Source: a virus (lineage: Duplodnaviria; Heunggongvirae; Uroviricota; Caudoviricetes). From it: DNA of 64,000 nucleotides. The notes below the pieces were generated by a model. It was not told the DNA's origin. It worked only from the letters and a program-made list of their open reading frames with translations, and did no database searches. Shown piece by piece: positions 22,011 to 52,895 of the stretch. Every line of letters starts with the position of its first letter. Position 1 is the stretch's first letter. The DNA is taken from positions 23,361 through 87,360 of IMG/VR virus record IMGVR_UViG_3300005076_000001. One strand, written 5' to 3'. The position numbers and the translations under genes were made by a program.

Positions 22011-22448
22011 ATGACTCAAGTTAAAAAACAATTTATAATTTCCGAACGTTCTAACAGTGCTTTGAAAGGCGTTGATAAACGTCTGCAAGATGTTGTTGCA
22101 TTGGCAATTAAATACACAACAGAAGATTTCTTTGTCAATGAAGGATTGCGCAGCCTAGAACGGCAGCGCCTGCTTGTCAAGCAAGGAGCTTCTAAAACAA
22201 TGAACAGCAAGCACATTACAGGTCATGCTGTTGACCTTATTCCTGTTGCTGTCAAAGGTGTTATTCCTTGGAACGACACAAAGAAATTTGATGCAATCGG
22301 TAAGGCAATGATGAAGGCAGCAGCAGAGCTTGGTGTTAAAATTCGTTGGGGCAAGGATTGGAATGGGAACGGAATTGCGGATGAGAAGTTTGTAGATAGT
22401 CCTCATTTTGAATTGCTTGATACAGCATCTTTTGTGAAAGGTTTCTAA
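22011..22448 (+). CDS. endolysin, L-alanyl-D-glutamate peptidase (peptidase M15 family)
   Basis: SKHITGHAVDL...DSPHFEL Zn-binding H-x6-D...H signature of M15/VanY-type phage endolysins. Confidence 0.8.
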   Translation: MTQVKKQFIISERSNSALKGVDKRLQDVVALAIKYTTEDFFVNEGLRSLERQRLLVKQGASKTMNSKHITGHAVDLIPVAVKGVIPWNDTKKFDAIGKAMMKAAAELGVKIRWGKDWNGNGIADEKFVDSPHFELLDTASFVKGF

Positions 22449-22639
22449 TGGAAAAGCTTAAACAATTGAAAGCATATGTGCTTGACTTGCTTGCAGAAGC
22501 TTCTACATGGCGTTCCCTGATGTTCTTTGCTACTTTGGCTACAGGGCATCAAATGGATTGGCCTGAAGAGCAGCAGTTGTTTGTTGCTACGTCAGCAGCA
22601 TACGCTATCGGGTTGATGTTCAAGGACAAGACAAAATGA
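22448..22639 (+). CDS. putative holin
   Basis: 63 aa, two hydrophobic segments, charged C-terminus, between endolysin and spanins. Confidence 0.4.
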   Translation: MEKLKQLKAYVLDLLAEASTWRSLMFFATLATGHQMDWPEEQQLFVATSAAYAIGLMFKDKTK

Positions 22640-22971
22640 ACAAAGTGGCGGAACTTGTCTACAAGCTTGTTCCCGCTCTTCTCATTGTTATTTCTGTATT
22701 CGCTTCTGGCTGGTTTGTACGTGGCTGGAGCGATGCAGAGGACAGGTTGAAAGAAGAGAAGGCAATTGCAGAGCAACGTATTGCAATTGAGAAGCTTGCT
22801 AACAGTACATTGCTTGAACTTAAAGATACATTGTCTGACATTAAGGCTCAAGGGATTAAAGAGCGCACCATCGTTCAGAAAGAGACACAGAAGCCTGTGT
22901 ACAGCCAACAATGCTTTGAACAGAGCGGTGTAGATATTGTCAACCAAATGGCTAAAGGGAACAAGCAATGA
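22636..22971 (+). CDS. i-spanin (Rz-like)
   Basis: N-terminal TM, periplasmic coiled coil; precedes lipoprotein gene. Confidence 0.55.
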   Translation: MNKVAELVYKLVPALLIVISVFASGWFVRGWSDAEDRLKEEKAIAEQRIAIEKLANSTLLELKDTLSDIKAQGIKERTIVQKETQKPVYSQQCFEQSGVDIVNQMAKGNKQ

Positions 22972-23246
22972 AACACATTCTAATTGCATTGTCCGTTGTT
23001 CTTTTGTCTGCTTGCTCTACAACGAAGGTGGTTTTGCCTGCTGAAACATTCAAGCCGGAGCTTACACAAATGTGTTCCCCTGTCTTGGCTGAAATGAAAG
23101 GGGTGGATGGCAAAGCTGTTTTCGTAACATTGCAGGCTTGGCATGAAGAATACAGACGTTGTGAAGCATTGAACAACAGCAAAGCCTCTTACATGCTCAA
23201 GCTACAAGAGCTTGTAAAGAAGCAGAATAGTTTGATTACATTCTAA
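22968..23246 (+). CDS. o-spanin (Rz1-like outer-membrane lipoprotein)
   Basis: Signal peptide with lipobox LSAC; 92 aa; follows i-spanin. Confidence 0.6.
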   Translation: MKHILIALSVVLLSACSTTKVVLPAETFKPELTQMCSPVLAEMKGVDGKAVFVTLQAWHEEYRRCEALNNSKASYMLKLQELVKKQNSLITF

Positions 23247-23294: not shown

Positions 23295-23483
23295 TTAGGC
23301 AAACAAGCCAAGAATGCTACCGAGAGGGGCAAGAACAATACCTGCTGCTCGTGCAATCTGGAGTGTATCAAACAGAGGCAAGGCTTGAACAAATGCAACG
23401 ATGTTCATAATCCAACCAACAAAAGCCGCAATCCAGAGACCCACCACAACCAAACCAAAACCAGCACCAAACAGTTCTTTCAT
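23295..23483 (-). CDS. small membrane protein (2 TM)
   Basis: 62 aa hydrophobic ORF with RBS. Confidence 0.35.
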   Translation of the reverse strand: MKELFGAGFGLVVVGLWIAAFVGWIMNIVAFVQALPLFDTLQIARAAGIVLAPLGSILGLFA

Positions 23484-38051: not shown

Positions 38052-38277
38052 CAATCTGTTATGTGGTTCGTTACACCACCTTGCATCCCTGCAAGTGTCG
38101 GACTATATCACCATCTCTCACGAGATGCCCCCCGTTTCGAGAGCACTTGCTCCCTACGCCTTTCGGCTAGTCTCTAGGCTTTCAGCTTTCGCTGTTTAGC
38201 ACGGTAAGTTAGCTGTTCTAGCTTTCTCCGTTTAGAGGGGTTTTCAATACGCATCACTGCGCAAGGCCACAATGTCT
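38052..38277 (-). other. group I self-splicing intron (226 nt, no ORF) in DNA polymerase gene
   Basis: 5' exon ends in U (..UACUACCAU); intron starts AGACAUUGUGG (IGS GUGG pairs CCAU giving U.G); R-like GAGACUAG (plus 38167-38174) and S-like GAUAUAGUCC (plus 38100-38109) P7 elements; terminal G; splicing restores HDE motif. Confidence 0.7.
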
Positions 38278-40995
38278 ATGGTAGTAGATTACGCGTTTAA
38301 CTTCGTAACCTTTATAAATATAGTAAGGTCGCCCCTTATCGTCAATGTACATCTCGCCCAACCATGTATCCATGAAACAACAAGCAAGGTCACAAGCAAT
38401 AGCACCACCAGACTGCATGATGATATTAATCAGGCTGTGTTTACTGCGTGTGTTCAGCAACCGTCCATCAATAGCAGGCAGGTGTTTCTTCTTGCCCTTG
38501 GTTTCCCAATACTTCTCCACATTCTCCTTCAGAGCCTTCAGCGCAGGGTTTGAGTCCCAGAACGCATCGTACAGTCGCTTACCTTCTGCCTCCGGCTTAC
38601 CAAGCGTTGTGGCCAGTTTCTTAGGTGAAGAACCATACAACACTGCGTAGCCACCGCTTTTTGCTTTGTTACGCCAAGGTTTGAAACGCGGGTCATCCTT
38701 GTTAAAGTCCACAGCCTTGTAGTCAAAGCCTTTCGTCTCTTCTGGGAAGAAGCTGCATGCCACTTTACTGTGAACATCACCCTCAAGCAACTCTTTTGCG
38801 TATGCACCGTTGTCGTACTTGTGCGTATTACCTGTAATGGTGATGGTGTTGCCCTGCTTCATGACCCAACTACCATGTTTTGTCTTTGGGCACCACACTT
38901 CCTCTGTGCCATAGTAAGATACTGCCATACGCTGCATGGTCACAAAACCTTTCCTGTTCACAGTGACAGTGTTATGTTTACAGCGTACATATTCTCTTGT
39001 AGCAACCGTCAGCATAGCGTCTGTAGCAAGGTACGTGGCGGTCAGGGCGGCATCAAAGTGCTTGCCTTCATTCTGAGAGAATCTCCACCGACCATCCGGA
39101 TTTCCAGCACAAACCTTGTGTGCATTTTCTCCTTCAAAATGACCATCTGCTACCAAGAAACCCTCCAACCACCTTTGCGTTTCTGCCAGTGATTGTTGAC
39201 AGATTCGTTCAGTCCAGTCAATAGAATACTTACCTTTTGCAAACTGCATGTCACAACCGCTGTAGTCGAGTGTTGGTGCATTTACAATAATGTTACAACA
39301 TGTATTCAAGTCTTTTGTCTCAACAACTCTGTCCTCGTAAGTTCGTTTTTGCGTGTTTCTGTATTTTACAAACCACCTGTGGTTGGCAGTTGCTCGTACA
39401 GAAAAATGCGAGTTGCTAATAGTATATGTTTCGGCATCAGAGAACTTGTGCTTGCTTTCTAGTGGTGTCCACTCTTTCTTTTTAGTCTCTGGGTTATATG
39501 CAAGTATATCTTCACCAATGACAAGCTCATTAAAAAACTTCCAACCTGTACGGGTTAGTGCTTGTGCCGACATTGGGACGCAATAATGGCCTGTAATGCG
39601 TTGTTCCAAACCACTGCTGTCAGAGGCTGCAATAACGAAGCCATCTTCAGCACAAAACAAACGCCTAAACTCTTCACCATACACACTACCGACACGAGGC
39701 ACGTTGCAAATTTCACTATGCGCTTGACGATGTGTGTTGGTAATTTTTGTGCTCTTAGGGTTTAGTCGTCCATCCCAATCAAGACGCCACACACCCAACC
39801 AACCCTCAAGCACAGAGAGACGATTACGCAAAGACAGAAAGCGAACAACGTCTTTAGCCAACTCACCTTCAAGAATTTCAAGATTAGGACACAGCTTGCC
39901 CATCTCCTGTAGCTTCGGTGATGTTTGGATAACATCTTTTGTACGCTCGTCTCTGACAGCTTTGCCTTTTGCGTCCTTCTTAATGTTCCAGAAAGTAGGC
40001 ACCCAACCATGCTCTTCTTGTAGCCAAGTTTTCAGATCGTCTTGGTGTTTAAGTTCCATTGGAAGCATAACGTCAAGAACAAGGTTGCCAACAACTTTAT
40101 ACTGCTTACCGTAAAACTCAACAACACCTGTGCTCACCTCTTTACCGTTATGCTTTGCAATAAAGTTTTGCATATGGTGTGAGTAAGAGCCGTCTTTCTT
40201 GTAAGGGTTTTTAGGAAGTGTGTATTCCTTTTCTTCACCTTTGTTCGGACTGCGTGGTGGCAGCTTAGGCTCAACCTTCTCCTTGAGTTCTTCAATCTCT
40301 TTCTCAAGGCGTTCTTTCACCTCAAGAGCAAGCTTCTTGTCAAAAGCATGACCCGTAAACTCTTGTGCTTTCATGAGGAAGAAGCTTTTCTGCCCCATGC
40401 GATAGCTAGGGTGAACCCACGCATCACCGTACATGTCAACAGCCTTACGCCATAGATCGAAGAACACAACAATGTTTGCGTCAACGTCTTGGTCACAATA
40501 CTCTTCCATCAACGGGTGATAGAAAGAAAACTCATGTCCTTTTGTTTCATTGCCAACCATCACACCAATGTCTACGAGGCGCTGGCGATAGTCGATCTTG
40601 TGACTACCAGCTTTGCGCGACAAAGCATCCAAACTGTGTGACTCAAGATCAGGTTCAAGGTACATGGATAGGTAGAGTGTGTCCCAAAACACCACCTCAA
40701 TACCTGCCAGCGTGTCTTTGCCTTTTTTGCCGACGCGAGGTTGTAGGTCGAAATGCTTCCACAACACCCACACATCATAGCCCAAGATATTGTGGCCTAC
40801 GATCAGCGGTTTATCAAACTGAGACAAAAAGTCTACAACGGCTTGTCTCACTTCCTCTTTTGTCATCTGGAACGGACGAAGGCTCAGTATCTTACTGCCA
40901 TCTGCTGTCTTCCAACGCATATACCACACTTGCTTTGATTGCAAATAGAGGTTGTCTGCCTCAATGTCAAATACAATGATGTTACTCCTGTCCAT
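38278..40995 (-). CDS. DNA polymerase, family A (T7 gp5-like) exon 1, with 3'-5' exo domain and an in-frame intein
   Basis: Exo I NIIVFDIEADN, Exo II HNILGYD; motif A DSSGLEQRI; motif B RNKAKSGGYAVLYG; start ATG 40995 with AGGAGAAAG RBS; ORF reads through into intron to TGA 38254. Confidence 0.85.
38827..39582 (-). mobile_element. intein (252 aa) with LAGLIDADG-type motif inserted after pol motif A
   Basis: Begins Cys right after ...EQRITGHY; block B TANHRWF; LEGFLVADGHFEG; ends ...ITITGN followed by Thr; flanks align contiguously to T7 gp5 (AHFMARFDNGEYAHEILNGDIHTK vs GHY/THKYDNGAYAKELLEGDVHSK). Confidence 0.75.
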
Positions 40996-41024
40996 ACTTT
41001 CTCCTCTGTAAACACTCACAAGAA

Positions 41025-41047
41025 GGGACAGCACTATCGCCTGTCCC
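41025..41047 (-). promoter_or_regulatory. 5' UTR hairpin of DNA polymerase mRNA
   Basis: GGGACAG-9nt-CTGTCCC perfect stem between promoter and RBS. Confidence 0.35.
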
Positions 41048-45257: not shown

Positions 45258-46568
45258 TTACACACGTTCCTTTACAGAGTAGCTCATCAGTGCGTGATAC
45301 GCAGCGGGAATGATATGCTCTTTCCATTTCTCAGCAAGACGTCTGGCATAAGCTTCTTTGCAACCACAATATGCTTCATGGGCTTCCTCTTGAGTTGGGA
45401 AGAATCCAAGGTATTCCCTACCTTTCTCTGTGTTGCAACGAGCAATGTACCCAACTGTCTCATTAGGTGTTTTAGGCTCAATGATGTGTACACCACGCAA
45501 GAACTTGGAGTCGCTCGGCTCGATGAGGAACTTGTTAACTTCTGATGGTAGGAAACAACAGCCTTCTGGCCCGTACACTTTGTTGTTAGGAATCAACAGG
45601 TCTTTGTCAAGTTCAAACTTAGGTAGTTGCCAGTTTGGTTGTGCCAAACCCCATTCAGCGAAGTTATGAAAATTCCACCACCTTTGGTCTACCTCTTTAT
45701 CCTCATAGCTTCTACCTGTTGGTTTTTGCAACTCAAACTCATTGTAACAGCGACTGAACATCCTTACCCAATAACCGTACATCCGCTCTGGTGCATGTTC
45801 ACCACGCTTGCTGCCGCGAGGAACAAACCTGCCAACACCAAAGAAACCTCTACCCTCTACAGACGGCTGCGTTGGTGGTTTAATACCGCCACTCAAAATA
45901 TTAGCAGAAGCATTCCAAGACTCGCTACCATCTTGCCATCGAATGAGAACGTCATGTGGCCCTTCGTAGCCAATAACTTCGCCTTCCCAACCGCTATTTG
46001 TTTTGAACTTTTGCCCAATACGGACAGCGCCTGTCGGATGCCTTACATTACCTTCTTTTAGGTTGTTCCAAGAAGTAACAACTTCACTTCCATCCTCAAA
46101 GGCAACTAGAATCTTTGTGGCGTTTACAAACTGTTTAACCACAACACTCCCGTAGTTGTTCGTAGAGAATACAGTACCAATCTCCGGTTTGCTCTTGGTT
46201 GGATGGCGATTGTGCCCTTGTCGAAGAACTGCAATGTTGGTAGTATGCTCCGTTCCATCGCTCAACCACTTAACACGCATCTCGGAGTTTTTCAATACTT
46301 CCACAATCTCAACAACATCACCGTCATGGCAAGGGAATTGTTGCCCAACGTAAGGCTTACCGAACGTAGGATGAAGTGGGCGCTGTTGTTTAATATAAGT
46401 GCCGGTGGTTGTCACAATAGCCCCGTCAAGGTCGAAACGAACGTCAATGTCCTTTCTTCCTCGGTATGCAACAATCTCAACTTCAAGCCCCTGTTTGTTT
46501 GTATAGCGATAGCCTACAAAATAGGCACCTTTCCTACTACCCATATACCCTCCCAATAAATAAGCCAA
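45258..46568 (-). CDS. HNH-type homing endonuclease with four N-terminal ~50 aa tandem repeats and C-terminal AP2 domain
   Basis: Repeats ending in (R/L)HP; nuclease-like WWNFHNFAEW...LDKDLLIPNNKVYGPEGCCFLPSEVN; AP2-like GREYLGFFPTQEEAHEAY; paralog of 33953..34585. Confidence 0.5.
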   Translation of the reverse strand: MAYLLGGYMGSRKGAYFVGYRYTNKQGLEVEIVAYRGRKDIDVRFDLDGAIVTTTGTYIKQQRPLHPTFGKPYVGQQFPCHDGDVVEIVEVLKNSEMRVKWLSDGTEHTTNIAVLRQGHNRHPTKSKPEIGTVFSTNNYGSVVVKQFVNATKILVAFEDGSEVVTSWNNLKEGNVRHPTGAVRIGQKFKTNSGWEGEVIGYEGPHDVLIRWQDGSESWNASANILSGGIKPPTQPSVEGRGFFGVGRFVPRGSKRGEHAPERMYGYWVRMFSRCYNEFELQKPTGRSYEDKEVDQRWWNFHNFAEWGLAQPNWQLPKFELDKDLLIPNNKVYGPEGCCFLPSEVNKFLIEPSDSKFLRGVHIIEPKTPNETVGYIARCNTEKGREYLGFFPTQEEAHEAYCGCKEAYARRLAEKWKEHIIPAAYHALMSYSVKERV

Positions 46569-46592
46569 CCCGAAGGTTGGCCTTTAGCTTGA

Positions 46593-48921: not shown

Positions 48922-49158
48922 TTAAAGTTTACGAACACGCATTTGCACATTGAGAGGGGAAGCTGGTGCAATTTCAATGATGTGACAAGCACCACAGTTA
49001 GGGCACATTTCAACTTGCTCATTAATGTCTTTTGCAACCTCTGTTGGAACAGATTCGATAGAGAAGTTGCTACAATAACATTCTCCCGCCTTGCTCTGCC
49101 ATTCTAGCAGATTACCACACTCACTGCAACGATCTGTAACACTGTCGTACATACCCAT
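48922..49158 (-). CDS. Zn-ribbon protein
   Basis: CSECG...CPNCGAC. Confidence 0.3.
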   Translation of the reverse strand: MGMYDSVTDRCSECGNLLEWQSKAGECYCSNFSIESVPTEVAKDINEQVEMCPNCGACHIIEIAPASPLNVQMRVRKL

Positions 49159-49529
49159 TATTTCTTCTCCTGTTTGTCTTTAGTTTGTTCATCAAGCCAT
49201 TTCTCCACAACAGCTACACTCTTCGAAGCAAGACGCTGTGCTGTCTCGCTTTTAACAGCTTCCGTAATACCAACACCTGCTGCAATGAGCATAGCATCTT
49301 CTTTGGAAGGAATGAAAGGTTTTGTTGCAGATGTTAGGATGAACACTGTTGCAAAAACAGGCATCCACTTCTTAGCAAGAGCCTTCTCTTCAACCTCGAG
49401 GTCACTTGACACAATCCGCAAGAAACCTAGTGCCAAGAAAAGCGCACCAGCCAACCCTTGCACCCAAGACAATGTTTGAATCAGCGTGTCAAGCCGTGTA
49501 ATCCAATACAAAATCCACAACGATTCCAT
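49158..49529 (-). CDS. membrane protein (holin-like candidate)
   Basis: 123 aa with 3-4 hydrophobic segments and charged C-terminus; directly downstream of secreted cell-wall hydrolase. Confidence 0.35.
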   Translation of the reverse strand: MESLWILYWITRLDTLIQTLSWVQGLAGALFLALGFLRIVSSDLEVEEKALAKKWMPVFATVFILTSATKPFIPSKEDAMLIAAGVGITEAVKSETAQRLASKSVAVVEKWLDEQTKDKQEKK

Positions 49530-50048
49530 TTATTTCTCCATTCGTTTGTAAAACACATGTCCAGATTCAACATACATCCTTTTCATCTTACTTGCCCATG
49601 TTGGACGTACATTCTTGGCATGAAAGAACGTAATGTTGCTGTAATTGCTTTGTCTATTATGCATTGCTCTTCCAAGAATGTCAAGCACAATTTGTATGTT
49701 CTCCTCGTACATTGCATTCTTCGTAAAGCTATACCCTGCTTTGTAGAAGGAAAATTGTGCCTTCTCTCTTAGAATGTCACAAACATGTTTATTCTTCTCT
49801 ATTGCCCTGTTAAGAATGACAACAGCAATTTTCTCCCTGTCTTGTTTGCTCTCTAGCTGCCCTTCAGAGAACAAGGCAGAGGAGAGACAAGCCACACTCC
49901 CCCTCTGTGTCATTGCATGAACATAAGCGTTGTTTGCATTTGCATTAGAAGCAAAGAACATCAGCAAAGACAAAGCAACAATGTAATATAAAACAATACG
50001 AATTATTCTTCTCCTTTTCTTACCAAGTAGTTTGCATGTGTAATCCAA
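49530..50048 (-). CDS. cell-wall hydrolase, SleB/CwlJ (Hydrolase_2) family, with N-terminal signal/SAR-like segment
   Basis: GSVACLSSALFSEGQLESKQDREKIAVVILNRAIEKNKHVCDILREKAQFSF matches Hydrolase_2 core (AVA.VILNR...QFS); N-terminal KKRRRIIRIVLYYIVALSLLMFFASNANA. Confidence 0.6.
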   Translation of the reverse strand: MDYTCKLLGKKRRRIIRIVLYYIVALSLLMFFASNANANNAYVHAMTQRGSVACLSSALFSEGQLESKQDREKIAVVILNRAIEKNKHVCDILREKAQFSFYKAGYSFTKNAMYEENIQIVLDILGRAMHNRQSNYSNITFFHAKNVRPTWASKMKRMYVESGHVFYKRMEK

Positions 50049-50323
50049 CCTAGTTGTGTCTCATTTGAAGACAGTGAGCATGTTTTGGCTTTTGCCAATG
50101 CAGAACGATATTGACGTTCAACATGATCTGTATAGGAGACTAGATGACAGCCCTGTATTGTAACATTCCCTGCTGCTCGGTCATGAAGAGATTGATGTAA
50201 AGCCTCTACAGAATTATCATTTGTCGGACAAACAACCTGTGCATCATAAATAGCCACGCTTTGCAATACAGCATCACTTGCAATAAAGACAGTGCCACCA
50301 CGGATAGTTACCTTACCTGACAT
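50003..50323 (-). CDS. hypothetical protein
   Basis: 106 aa ORF overlapping hydrolase start. Confidence 0.3.
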   Translation of the reverse strand: MSGKVTIRGGTVFIASDAVLQSVAIYDAQVVCPTNDNSVEALHQSLHDRAAGNVTIQGCHLVSYTDHVERQYRSALAKAKTCSLSSNETQLGWITHANYLVRKGEE

Positions 50324-52634: not shown

Positions 52635-52820
52635 TCAAAATCCACATTTCTTTTCTCCTTTAGGTTTTAACTGTATGCCGCCCTCGACACAACGTATGTC
52701 AAATATAGCATTGATGTTCTTGCTTGTCAACTCTTTTACGTATTCTTCTGCCTCTTCCTTTGTATCTCTGTAGCCACACAACATTGTCTTAGGCAGACGT
52801 TGGCAGATGATGTATTTCAT
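52635..52820 (-). CDS. first gene of leftward early operon, hypothetical
   Basis: 61 aa, RBS ACAGGAGAACACCC; directly downstream of promoter/operator. Confidence 0.35.
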   Translation of the reverse strand: MKYIICQRLPKTMLCGYRDTKEEAEEYVKELTSKNINAIFDIRCVEGGIQLKPKGEKKCGF

Positions 52821-52840: not shown

Positions 52841-52895
52841 GTTAACATGTCCACGTACTCGTACACATGTTAACTTGCTTGTGAGGGTGTGTCAA
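52841..52895 (-). promoter_or_regulatory. leftward early promoter TTGACA-N17-TAACAT overlapped by perfect 10-bp inverted repeat operator
   Basis: minus-strand TTGACA (plus 52890-52895), TAACAT (plus 52867-52872); IR GTTAACATGT(52841-52850)-N14-ACATGTTAAC(52865-52874) covers -10 to +20. Confidence 0.5.

Follow-up and report, generated by a model that had tools for sequence, protein, structure and literature searches.

The 64,000-nucleotide stretch of phage DNA analysed here (the window) carries on its minus strand, among replication genes, a reading frame for a cell wall hydrolase (49530–50048) followed directly by one for a membrane protein (49158–49529), and the locus raises the question of what a second muralytic enzyme contributes to a phage that also encodes a late lysis cassette on the opposite strand. 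The initial annotation had described both reading frames, which are indeed present, and had suggested either a SAR endolysin with a pinholin partner or a role in entry or exclusion, regarding two muralytic systems in one lytic phage as unusual. In the late cassette that it had listed alongside, the M15 endolysin and both the inner- and outer-membrane spanin components are recognised, but the 63-residue product named as holin is weakly hydrophobic and has no family match, and is kept here as a candidate. Positions of all features are given in Table 1.

Table 1. Features of the hydrolase locus, its transcription unit and the late lysis cassette, by position in the window.
Feature	Position	Strand	Basis
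Hydrolase CDS, signal peptide followed by a SleB/CwlJ-type (Hydrolase_2) catalytic domain	49530..50003	minus	Pfam, PHROG, AF2, Foldseek, homologue starts
Signal peptide, 23 codons, (M)RIVLYYIVALSLLMFFASNANA, predicted signal-peptidase-I cut before NNAYVH	49935..50003	minus	composition, hydrophobicity, conserved -3/-1
Glu47 codon (Glu62 in 172-aa numbering), predicted catalytic Glu	49863..49865	minus	invariant in A3
Cys39 codon (partner Cys75, 49779-49781)	49887..49889	minus	invariant columns in A3
Shine-Dalgarno AAGGAG, 7 nt 5' of ATT	50011..50016	minus	context like neighbouring gene starts
Membrane protein, 123 aa, phrog_3878 (function unknown)	49158..49529	minus	PHROG profile, 19 homologues
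Sigma-70-like promoter match TTGACA-17-TAACAT, ahead of first minus-block gene	52867..52895	minus	consensus scan
Second sigma-70-like match, TTGACA-17-TATATT with TG	52702-52730	minus	consensus scan
First downstream terminator-like hairpin, just 3' of primase/helicase gene	46562..46583	minus	scan
Late lysis cassette, strand opposite the hydrolase	22011..23246	plus	profiles, lipobox
M15 endolysin, no signal	22011-22448	plus	phrog_465 1.6e-48; Peptidase_M15_4 PF13539 1e-9
Candidate holin, 63 aa	22448-22639	plus	putative; no family match
Rz-like i-spanin	22636-22971	plus	phrog_1152 2.5e-17
Lipoprotein o-spanin	22968-23246	plus	phrog_2425/812/456 and lipobox LLSAC

A SleB-type hydrolase and its predicted export signal

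The hydrolase has 172 residues when counted from a TTG codon at 50048 and 157 codons when counted from an ATT at 50003–50001, the TTG adding 15 residues; the shorter numbering is used below. With the Pfam family Hydrolase_2 (PF07486), whose gathering cut-off is 27 bits, it scores 40.1 bits (E=5.9e-10) over profile positions 2–100 of 100, and it also matches the 'endolysin' family phrog_938 (6e-16), which supports a second peptidoglycan hydrolase of this family outside the late cassette. An AlphaFold2 model of the protein (pLDDT 91.3) was compared to PDB structures using Foldseek, and significant matches were confined to two SleB catalytic domains, 4FET and 4F55 (probability 1.00, rmsd 2.6–2.7 Å, target-normalised TM 0.71–0.79); at E<=1e-3, 34 viral structure models share the fold. 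A profile of 53 sequences (A3) searched against PDB sequences likewise reaches 4f55 (8e-16). Armadillo-repeat matches returned by a narrower profile (A1) were discarded as spurious, having arisen via the signal and N-terminal region.

Glu47 is invariant in the 53-sequence alignment and aligns with the Glu of the AVYGE motif in 4FET and 4F55, which by chain-length arithmetic would be the catalytic Glu151/Glu157 reported in Jing 2012 and Li 2012. The two invariant cysteines, Cys39 and Cys75, probably form a disulfide in the periplasm; the pair marks out the family's periplasmic and phage branch and is missing from Bacillus SleB, where M/L and S stand in its place. Homology and the structural model strongly support a SleB-type peptidoglycan lytic transglycosylase of small size with a single domain, the lytic-transglycosylase chemistry being assumed from Bacillus SleB. 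Some papers name phage SleB-like proteins amidases (e.g. PMC7344957).

The initial annotation had read the hydrophobic N-terminal segment as either a Sec signal or SAR-like, and it is the former that is predicted. There is a single such segment (19-residue Kyte-Doolittle maximum 2.36), and the N-terminus, MRIVLYYIVALSLLMFFASNANA followed by NN, reads as a cleavable Sec signal whose n-h-c layout, assigned heuristically from composition and homologues, is MR, then the core IVLYYIVALSLLMFFAS, then NANA, with a signal-peptidase-I site (ANA before NN) directly after the core. The core has a mean Kyte-Doolittle value of 2.32 and is 24% Gly/Ala/Ser/Thr, compared with 55–65% for P1 Lyz and R21 in their SAR domains. 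All of the hydrolase homologues keep the -3/-1 pattern A/V/C-x-A/S (the tripeptides before NN are ANA, VHA, AQA, AHS, CSA and ARS) as the core sequence drifts, and hydrophobic N-termini occur in 120 of the 149 representatives of the family. Such strong hydrophobicity, the scarcity of Gly/Ala/Ser and the conserved cleavage site that follows mean that the segment is not a SAR anchor, and the SAR-endolysin proposal is not sustained. A precursor with a 23-residue Sec signal that signal peptidase I would remove by cleavage behind Ala-Asn-Ala is thus strongly supported by prediction, and equally so a mature form (134 aa, ~15.6 kDa, pI 9.7, all predicted) that would be a soluble basic periplasmic protein in a Gram-negative host.

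Purifying selection acts on both the hydrolase and membrane protein genes, with dN/dS of 0.15 and 0.26 respectively against a 90%-identical relative (L005); within the hydrolase the value is 0.54 for the signal and 0.08 for the mature part. Searched as DNA, the region matched none of 50,697 phage genomes, and profile scans of IMG/VR with A1 and with A2, the membrane protein alignment, found two loci each. Scanning GTDB genomes with A1 returned none, and as such there is no bacterial or prophage source and no clue to the host. NCBIfam has nothing for either protein and PADLOC nothing meaningful.

Translation start, transcription unit and the adjacent membrane gene

The true start of the hydrolase is more likely to be the ATT at 50003–50001 than the TTG at 50048, judging by sequence context. 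The ATT lies behind a perfect Shine-Dalgarno sequence in a context ('aaaaggagaagaata ATT') essentially identical to 'taaaggagaagaata ATG' at 50323 and resembling those of neighbouring starts, and it overlaps the TAA stop of an upstream 106-residue reading frame (TAATT); no comparable Shine-Dalgarno sequence is present ahead of the in-frame TTG. Initiation at AUU is known in bacteria (infC) but is weak. The three closest homologues are also 157 residues long and have TTG at the position homologous to the ATT, and more distant relatives (L008, L001) start with ATG or GTG. Two contigs bear the ATT, and since these are identical across 4.4 kb they do not demonstrate its long-term upkeep. A weak AUU behind a perfect Shine-Dalgarno sequence here, and UUG in the three nearest relatives, suggest that a low dose of the hydrolase is wanted, a suggestion made by the start codons alone. 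The ATT/TTG start also leads standard gene callers to mis-call or miss the gene, and the JGI call at this position is a truncated 143-residue product with an internal ATG start; the locus thereby offers a lesson for annotation as well as a hint of low dosage for an exported wall-cutting enzyme. The 106-residue upstream frame has no significant similarity to the upstream reading frames of Vequintavirinae and is unconserved even in close relatives, and a conserved three-gene module common with Vequintavirinae (upstream beta-rich reading frame, hydrolase and membrane reading frame) was considered and rejected.

A consensus scan, which is blind to phage-specific middle or late promoters, found 24 sigma-70-like matches in the region where 15 +/- 3.5 are expected by chance, and with such mild enrichment the matches taken alone are weak evidence. 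One sigma-70-like site lies inside the hydrolase reading frame (49684–49656), at a near-chance frequency of such matches. The minus strand has no terminator-like site in the scan between the hydrolase and ~46.58 kb, and the intervening genes overlap or are directly contiguous (TAATT, TAAATG, TAATG), an arrangement suggesting that the hydrolase, membrane protein and primase/helicase genes belong to one transcription unit. With promoter matches at 52.7–52.9 kb and no terminator before 46.58 kb, the hydrolase is probably made in early or mid infection and not with the late cassette, a timing read from gene neighbourhood and consensus promoter matches.

The membrane protein gene begins one base past the hydrolase stop codon, and its product matches phrog_3878 over almost its entire length (E=3.3e-18, residues 1–122, profile positions 1–124 of 129). 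It was initially described as multi-TM; it does adjoin the hydrolase, but has two transmembrane helices and a long C-terminal helix (AF2 helices 2–40, 46–72 and 76–121, low confidence, pLDDT 68.8). Among 19 homologues (alignment A2) the N-terminus (MExFWxLYWITRLD) is conserved and strongly so the C-terminal helix (PSKEDAxxIAAGVGITEAVKSETAQRLASKSV..WLD.Q), which is followed by a charged tail (KDKQEKK), and the transmembrane helices and their connecting loop are variable. Generic holin-like features are present (123 residues, two transmembrane helices, charged C-terminus) and are not diagnostic; no holin family is matched in Pfam (only YLATT, E=0.2), NCBIfam, PHROGs (phrog_3878 only) or PADLOC.

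Linkage of the two genes is inconsistent. The membrane gene is adjacent to the hydrolase gene or one gene away in six related lineages (window/L006, L005, L012, L008, L002 and L007), but two others (L001, L021) have the hydrolase with no neighbouring membrane gene, and in L020 another gene follows the hydrolase. Conversely, two cultured phages, Alteromonas phage PT11-V22 and Citrobacter phage CVT22, encode the membrane protein with no Hydrolase_2 gene in the early regions examined, and both are absent among tblastn matches of the hydrolase. These two were reached with a divergent membrane-protein relative, which gave weak matches that the A2 profile confirmed; tblastn with the membrane protein of the window found nothing at 1e-3. 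From gene order and profile matches, the membrane protein reads as a syntenic neighbour of the hydrolase and not an obligate partner. With facultative linkage and no holin family, the pinholin suggested in the initial annotation is not supported.

Proposed role and competing readings

We favour, with modest confidence, a periplasmic SleB-type lytic transglycosylase supplied at low level from the early operon and assisting the late M15/spanin cassette; the statement that the hydrolase is a holin-independent accessory muralytic enzyme, taken by itself, is made tentatively, as nearly balanced. The enzyme would be translated from a tightly packed, coupled minus-strand replication block, upstream of the primase/helicase gene, and would be in place in the periplasm beforehand, in sub-lytic amounts, with the host still mending its wall. 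The late holin would then collapse the membrane potential, allowing the cytoplasmic M15 peptidase and the spanins to act, and with the hydrolase cutting glycan strands and the M15 enzyme cutting peptide stems, the sacculus may be destroyed faster or more completely. An accessory role is supported by the complete signal-less M15 endolysin and two-component spanin cassette at 22011–23246, and by the similar combination of an M15-type endolysin with a distant signal-peptide SleB-like hydrolase in Pectobacterium phage CB7 (Certrevirus), where the M15-type protein is a peptidase/endolysin (PMC7344957), and in Salmonella phages (PMC11180984). Counting against this reading, early production of an enzyme that is exported and cuts the wall should endanger the infected cell, the more distant relatives start with ATG or GTG, and the ATT could be a simple recent loss of the start codon.

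A periplasmic function early in infection, in which the sacculus is remodelled or nicked and the enzyme takes no part in final lysis, is unlikely, though with a real chance of being right. Possible purposes are hindrance of superinfecting phages, altered cell growth or shape, and release of anhydro-muropeptides, and the membrane protein could then act in superinfection exclusion in the manner of T4 Imm/Sp. The position of the hydrolase in an early/replication operon, distant from the lysis cassette and on the other strand, fits such a function, as do a replication-gene placement in Vequintavirinae and Ab1-TPeters, the occurrence of the membrane protein family in early regions of PT11-V22 and CVT22, and a Zymomonas SleB homologue that remodels rather than lyses (bioRxiv 10.64898/2026.07.21.739787). 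However, no homology to a known exclusion or defence protein is found (PADLOC: none), experiments on phage homologues indicate lysis or toxicity, and there is no known way for a soluble transglycosylase to shut out a second phage; nothing in the analysis speaks for exclusion in particular. A more specific proposal, that an under-translated (AUU/UUG, coupled), early, Sec-secreted transglycosylase and the phrog_3878 protein form a module for pre-lysis wall priming or superinfection exclusion, is improbable. If true, it would mean a second, holin-independent envelope programme starting long before the late M15/spanin cassette, and the recurrent signal-bearing SleB-like genes in replication operons of unrelated large lytic phages would reflect an undescribed early function.

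Distinctly unlikely is an independent second lysis module, with the hydrolase a true endolysin and the membrane protein its dedicated holin, antiholin or releasing factor, an endolysin and dedicated membrane partner having been proposed for CB7_83/CB7_82 (PMC7344957). Small size, two transmembrane helices, a charged C-terminal tail and closeness to the hydrolase gene in six related lineages are as this would predict, the SleB-like genes of ChuuTotoro and CB7 likewise have a small two-TM reading frame behind them, and the late cassette has a holin that is a candidate only. Nonetheless, export via a cleavable Sec signal requires no holin and the membrane protein matches no holin family; the conservation of its N-terminus and C-terminal helix, with variable transmembrane helices and loop, gives no hint of contact with an enzyme in the periplasm. 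Its absence beside the hydrolase in L001 and L021, the different gene following in L020 and its presence without the hydrolase in the early regions examined of PT11-V22 and CVT22 tell further against a module, and because the relatives are all one syntenic clade the adjacency may be simple inheritance.

It is also quite improbable that the hydrolase is barely expressed or silent, a decaying accessory gene whose start has changed from ATG/TTG to ATT. The homologous start is indeed none of ATG, GTG or TTG, the JGI call is truncated, the exact protein was not found in a collection of 5.8 billion proteins, and the change may be recent given contigs identical over 4.4 kb. Against this, the reading frame is intact and under strong purifying selection relative to L005, the Shine-Dalgarno sequence is perfect with the TAATT overlap favouring coupled re-initiation, the in-frame TTG at 50048 would still yield a signal-bearing product, and the closest relatives are already on a weak TTG.

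The two remaining proposals have little to recommend them. A SAR endolysin and pinholin pair is very improbable, for while a hydrophobic segment on a muralytic enzyme is followed here by a small two-TM protein, the segment has the composition and signal-peptidase site of a cleaved signal, and the 123-residue neighbour has a long conserved soluble helix and the facultative linkage noted above. A virion-associated entry lysin digesting the wall during DNA injection is scarcely credible: other phages do have Hydrolase_2 domains embedded in large virion or DarB-like proteins (POI1126, PBC5; structure matches >=1000 aa), but the hydrolase is free-standing with 157 residues and a cleavable Sec signal, is encoded in the replication and not the structural block, and as a secreted protein could not be packaged in the cytoplasm, and the PA5oct SleB-domain protein was not found in virions.

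Comparison with known systems

SleB-type hydrolases with a signal peptide occur commonly among phages of Gram-negative bacteria, and their coexistence with M15 endolysins is already known, so the view that two muralytic systems in one lytic phage are unusual does not hold, given CB7, the Salmonella phages and the viral fold matches. With a second enzyme of the same kind known from several lytic phage groups, the finding is real but ordinary. Of wider note is that secreted SleB-type enzymes lie repeatedly among replication and not lysis genes, as seen in the present phage, Vequintavirinae and an Acinetobacter phage; the homologues of SSBI34, ChuuTotoro, Av-05 and Ab1-TPeters are among genes for RNA ligase, helicase, exonuclease and dCTP deaminase. 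Being small (15.6 kDa in its predicted mature, basic form) and predicted to export itself, the enzyme may also be a lead for enzybiotics.

The Bacillus SleB/CwlJ proteins (4FET, 4F55) share the catalytic-domain fold and the Glu in an AVYGE-like motif at ~18% identity, but the phage hydrolase has neither an N-terminal peptidoglycan-binding domain nor a YpeB partner. Its substrate must be ordinary Gram-negative peptidoglycan, in contrast to the muramic-delta-lactam cortex cut by the Bacillus enzymes. Like it, the SAR endolysins P1 Lyz and phage 21 R21 are muralytic enzymes that begin with a hydrophobic segment, and they are exported without a holin, as is predicted for it, but it has neither of the SAR hallmarks, a weakly hydrophobic Gly/Ala-rich uncleaved anchor and a pinholin partner. 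Lys44 of Oenococcus phage fOg44 is Sec-exported with a cleavable signal and is holin-independent, its activity being thought to be restrained until the membrane is de-energised. The phage hydrolase is alike in its predicted Sec export with a cleavable signal, but Lys44 belongs to another catalytic family, acts in a Gram-positive host and is the only endolysin of fOg44, inside its lysis cassette, whereas the enzyme here is a second one located outside.

Closer in gene context are CB7_83, CR3_087 and the proteins of SSBI34, ChuuTotoro, Av-05 and GAP31 (Vequintavirinae/Certrevirus), which combine a signal peptide (for example MKKRITAILLACTLSLSTAPALA, cut before KESA, in a Vequintavirinae homologue) with a SleB-like domain at ~26–29% identity to the hydrolase. 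Their genes similarly lie among nucleic-acid-metabolism genes outside the lysis cassette, and in CB7 the SleB-like protein accompanies an M15 (T5-type) peptidase in one genome; signal-bearing CB7_83 is toxic when expressed (PMC7344957). The small two-TM reading frame that sometimes lies 3' of the SleB-like gene (ChuuTotoro, CB7) encodes 65–80 residues compared with 123 here, the genomes are 120–150 kb compared with ~87 kb here, and the upstream reading frames are non-homologous.

The nearest functional counterpart is Cwh of Aeromonas phage ASG01 (of the pAh6-C gp31 type), in which a 23-residue signal peptide likewise precedes a Hydrolase_2 domain, and which lyses E. coli without any holin (PMC10975977). 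Mutation of its residues C34, E42, N60, R61, C72 or S82 abolishes or reduces lysis, C34A abolishing it and C72A and Ala at E42 reducing it (PMC10975977), and all six are identical in the hydrolase (C39, E47, N65, R66, C75 and S85). pAh6-C gp31 is longer (184 aa compared with 157 aa), its C-terminal half does not align to the family profile, and it is not among the tblastn matches of the hydrolase at E<=1e-3. By analogy with Cwh, the hydrolase would be expected to reach the wall without a holin. Cwh is the sole lysis protein identified by its authors in a Chaseviridae genome, whereas the phage described here adds to such an enzyme a full M15/spanin cassette.

The SleB-type hydrolase and its predicted export signal

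Two abutting minus-strand ORFs occupy positions 49158-50048. The product of the upstream ORF matches the whole profile of PF07486 Hydrolase_2 (40.1 bits against a gathering score of 27, E=5.9e-10), described as 'Cell Wall Hydrolase', SleB/CwlJ (Pfam), as well as PHROG 938 'endolysin' (6e-16). A search of 1.84 billion cluster representatives with a profile built from ten close homologues gave 3,780 relatives with E<=1e-3. The AlphaFold2 model (pLDDT 91.3; input, the broad 53-sequence family alignment A3) superimposes on the PDB SleB catalytic domains 4FET/4F55 with an rmsd of 2.6-2.7 A and a target-normalised TM of 0.71-0.79, and 34 models in a viral structure library match the fold at E<=1e-3, the named ones being 'cell wall hydrolase SleB' of phages such as GAP31, pf16, PhiW-14, Goslar and SU10. 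Used as a profile, A3 reaches the SleB sequence 4f55 directly (8e-16) and aligns the invariant Glu47 (157-aa numbering) to the glutamate of the SleB motif AVYGE. By chain arithmetic we take this glutamate to be SleB Glu151/Glu157, presumably the catalytic residue; 2012 studies by Jing and colleagues and by Li and colleagues reportedly assign it that role. One single glutamate is essential in SleB (PMC12331253, PMC11148199). Five columns of the family alignment are invariant (C39, E47, R66, C75 and Q83), whereas Bacillus SleB has neither cysteine. The initial annotation had proposed a second SleB/CwlJ-family wall hydrolase outside the late cassette and named the lack of a Hydrolase_2 HMM match as refuting it; such a match was obtained, and identity as a SleB-type enzyme is highly likely. 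Compared with L005, a relative of 90% identity, the mature part is strongly constrained (dN/dS 0.08); the enzyme is therefore very probably active.

The N-terminus is hydrophobic in all hydrolase homologues and changes freely in sequence (dN/dS 0.54 over the first 23 codons against L005); it is closed in every case by a small-x-small motif (ANA, VHA, AQA, AHS, CSA and ARS are seen) directly ahead of a conserved NN(A/S/Q)YV. Such a segment occurs in 120 of the 149 best family representatives, and Vequintavirinae SleB-like proteins also begin with one. The export signal proposed earlier thus finds good support as a predicted cleavable signal peptide, with a predicted mature protein of 134 aa, 15.6 kDa and pI 9.7.

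SAR domains of P1 Lyz and R21 contain 55-65% Gly/Ala/Ser/Thr. The hydrolase core, IVLYYIVALSLLMFFAS, contains 24% (mean Kyte-Doolittle 2.32), and this composition together with the conserved small-x-small site makes a SAR domain very unlikely. The suggested SAR-endolysin/pinholin pair falls with it, the downstream membrane protein belonging to no Pfam, NCBIfam or PADLOC family.

Start codon and genomic setting

Features of the window discussed in the text
Feature	Positions	Strand	Remarks
Structural and lysis block	1-23246	plus	
M15 endolysin	22011-22448	plus	Peptidase_M15_4, signal-less; phrog_465, 1.6e-48
63-aa ORF in holin position	22448-22639	plus	weakly hydrophobic
i-spanin	22636-22971	plus	Rz-like
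o-spanin	22968-23246	plus	lipoprotein, lipobox LLSAC
Block with DNA polymerase and primase/helicase	23295-52820	minus	
62-aa ORF	23295-23483	minus	phrog_6006 (function unknown), very hydrophobic
DNA polymerase I	38254-41034	minus	
78-aa ORF	48922-49158	minus	two CxxC pairs
Membrane protein	49158-49529	minus	123 aa; start one base past hydrolase stop
Hydrolase	49530-50048	minus	172 aa when read from TTG; the upstream one of the two ORFs
Sigma-70-like match	52730-52702	minus	consensus scan
Sigma-70-like match	52895-52867	minus	consensus scan
Further block	from 53234	plus	

The three closest homologues (L005, L020 and L021; 76-90% identity) all start at TTG (L005:367, L020:680, L021:222), within the conserved sequence acataaca TTG cgt att gtt. 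The window has ATT at the homologous position (50001-50003, minus) and no canonical start there. A perfect AAGGAG lies 7 nt ahead of this ATT, which overlaps the TAA stop of the upstream ORF (TAATT), and its context, aaaaggagaagaata ATT, is almost the same as taaaggagaagaata ATG one gene upstream; ATG starts 13 of the 16 genes of this minus-strand block. The ATT recurs in L006, an independent 6.6-kb JGI contig that matches the window exactly for 4.4 kb and then diverges, and on which the JGI gene caller truncated the hydrolase to 143 aa. The exact protein was not found in a collection of 5.8 billion proteins; automated gene calling cuts the gene short or overlooks it. Translation may start at AUU, a weak but known initiator, or at an in-frame TTG (50048) that is poorly placed, and either start gives a signal-bearing precursor; possibly the hydrolase is hardly made. 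Selection for low dosage is only a suggestion, because the farther relatives L008 and L001 use ATG and GTG.

The gene lies about 2.8 kb into the minus-strand block, where genes are packed stop-to-start. The promoter scan is only mildly enriched (24 matches, 15 +/- 3.5 by chance), and the first terminator-like hairpin found downstream is at 46583-46562, past the primase/helicase gene. Given the upstream sigma-70-like sites, the lack of a hairpin until 46583 and the tight packing, early or middle expression is likely. A near-consensus sigma-70-like match (TTGACA-17-CATAAT, 11/12; 49656-49684, minus), of a kind found here near chance frequency, is located within the hydrolase ORF, ahead of the membrane-protein gene, and could uncouple the transcription of the two genes.

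L006 equals the window base for base from 50824 down to about 46347, where complete divergence marks a mosaic junction (L006:4478) in ORF 45258-46568, directly downstream of the primase/helicase gene. A 1.5-kb region searched at the DNA level has no relatives in a set of 50,697 phage records. The genome of the source phage measures about 87 kb (P0010 contig); its DNA polymerase I is closest to that of Pseudomonas phage vB_PsaM_M1 (47% identity, 89-kb genome), followed by phi92/rV5-like phages (about 32%).

The membrane protein and the late cassette

The membrane protein matches only phrog_3878, of unknown function (3e-18), with no significant Pfam match (best YLATT, E=0.2). Its 19 homologues share an invariant N-terminus (M..W.LYWITR.D) and a highly conserved C-terminal helix with a charged tail (PSKEDA..IAAGVGITEAVKSETAQRLASKSV..WLD.Q); the two TM helices and loop vary freely. 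The AF2 model, of moderate confidence (pLDDT 68.8), consists of three helices. The gene adjoins the hydrolase in the window and L006, L005, L012 and L008, and lies one gene away in L002 and L007; in L001 and L021 a homologue of the window's 113-aa ORF comes directly next instead, and in L020 a different gene follows. Since all hydrolase-bearing relatives form one syntenic clade (primase identity 39-88%), adjacency can be inherited gene order. Of the partnership proposed earlier the adjacent gene stands, and with linkage varying among relatives the membrane protein counts as a neighbour of the hydrolase rather than as an established partner.

The 78-aa ORF, zinc-ribbon-like with weak Pfam Zn_ribbon matches, overlaps the membrane-gene stop (ATGA-type coupling) and is otherwise found in the identical contig L006 alone. 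L002 carries a different Cys-rich ORF (159 aa) between hydrolase and membrane gene and, after primase/helicase, an HNH_3/AP2 homing-endonuclease-like ORF (L002:9552-10223); just past it, tblastn picks up a short stretch of the primase C-terminus (residues 547-584) a second time, which suggests that endonuclease insertion may have duplicated or split the primase gene end.

The M15 endolysin and spanins of the late cassette hold; its annotated holin is a candidate only, as the 63-aa ORF has no family match and no strongly hydrophobic 19-mer. The true holin could instead be the convergent 62-aa ORF just past the o-spanin, or this ORF could encode an additional membrane lysis factor.

Proposed role and known phage systems

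As the most likely mechanism, we propose that the hydrolase would be a SleB-type transglycosylase, made at low level from the replication operon, Sec-exported and processed by signal peptidase, and would assist the late M15/spanin cassette independently of a holin. The accessory-lysis role is tentative. Its main rivals begin with an early periplasmic role outside lysis, with which the likely early or middle expression would also be consistent. An independent lysis module of hydrolase and membrane protein would fit their adjacency, but the membrane gene is absent beside the hydrolase in L001 and L021, and the membrane-protein profile A2 picks up the family in the early regions covered for two phages, at 8e-13 in Alteromonas phage PT11-V22, where it directly precedes primase-helicase, and at 1e-11 in Citrobacter phage CVT22. 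These loci have no Hydrolase_2 ORF, and both phages are missing from the hydrolase tblastn matches. The freely variable loop, periplasmic if N-in, gives no hint that it touches a periplasmic enzyme. A near-silent gene that has lost its start codon would suit the ATT, which is nevertheless preceded by AAGGAG. An entry-lysin reading was rejected.

When the hydrolase is mapped onto gp31 of Aeromonas phage pAh6-C, the residue numbering agrees with that of ASG01 Cwh, and Cwh C34, E42, N60, R61, C72 and S82 correspond to the identical C39, E47, N65, R66, C75 and S85 of the hydrolase. Cwh, with a predicted 23-aa signal peptide, lyses E. coli without accessory protein; C34A abolishes lysis, substitutions at the other five residues reduce it, and C34 is part of a disulfide according to the authors (PMC10975977). 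The initial annotation considered two muralytic systems unusual, but Pectobacterium phage CB7 encodes both a T5-type M15 peptidase (CB7_190) and CB7_83, a SleB-like protein with a predicted signal peptide that is toxic when expressed and is overlapped by the two-TM ORF CB7_82, a proposed class II holin (PMC7344957). The same pairing occurs in Salmonella phages, with a Peptidase_M15C endolysin adjoining a holin and a distant SleB-domain ORF (PMC11180984).

The placement seen in the window recurs elsewhere. In three Vequintavirinae (Salmonella phage SSBI34, Serratia phage ChuuTotoro and Escherichia phage Av-05) the signal-bearing SleB-like gene lies between RNA ligase and helicase or rIIA, and in Acinetobacter phage Ab1-TPeters a signal-less version lies between exonuclease and dCTP deaminase. 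Just upstream of the SleB-like gene in Vequintavirinae (L018:987-1340, L019:983-1324) is a conserved ORF of about 115 aa (40% identity between ChuuTotoro and Av-05), made of 'GDV/GNV' repeats and with a bactofilin- or beta-helix-like look; the ORF upstream of the hydrolase in the window shows no homology to it. The pairing of M15 with a distant SleB protein being documented, the hydrolase is a new representative of a known class, and a fairly divergent one, with <=35% identity to any cultured-phage protein.
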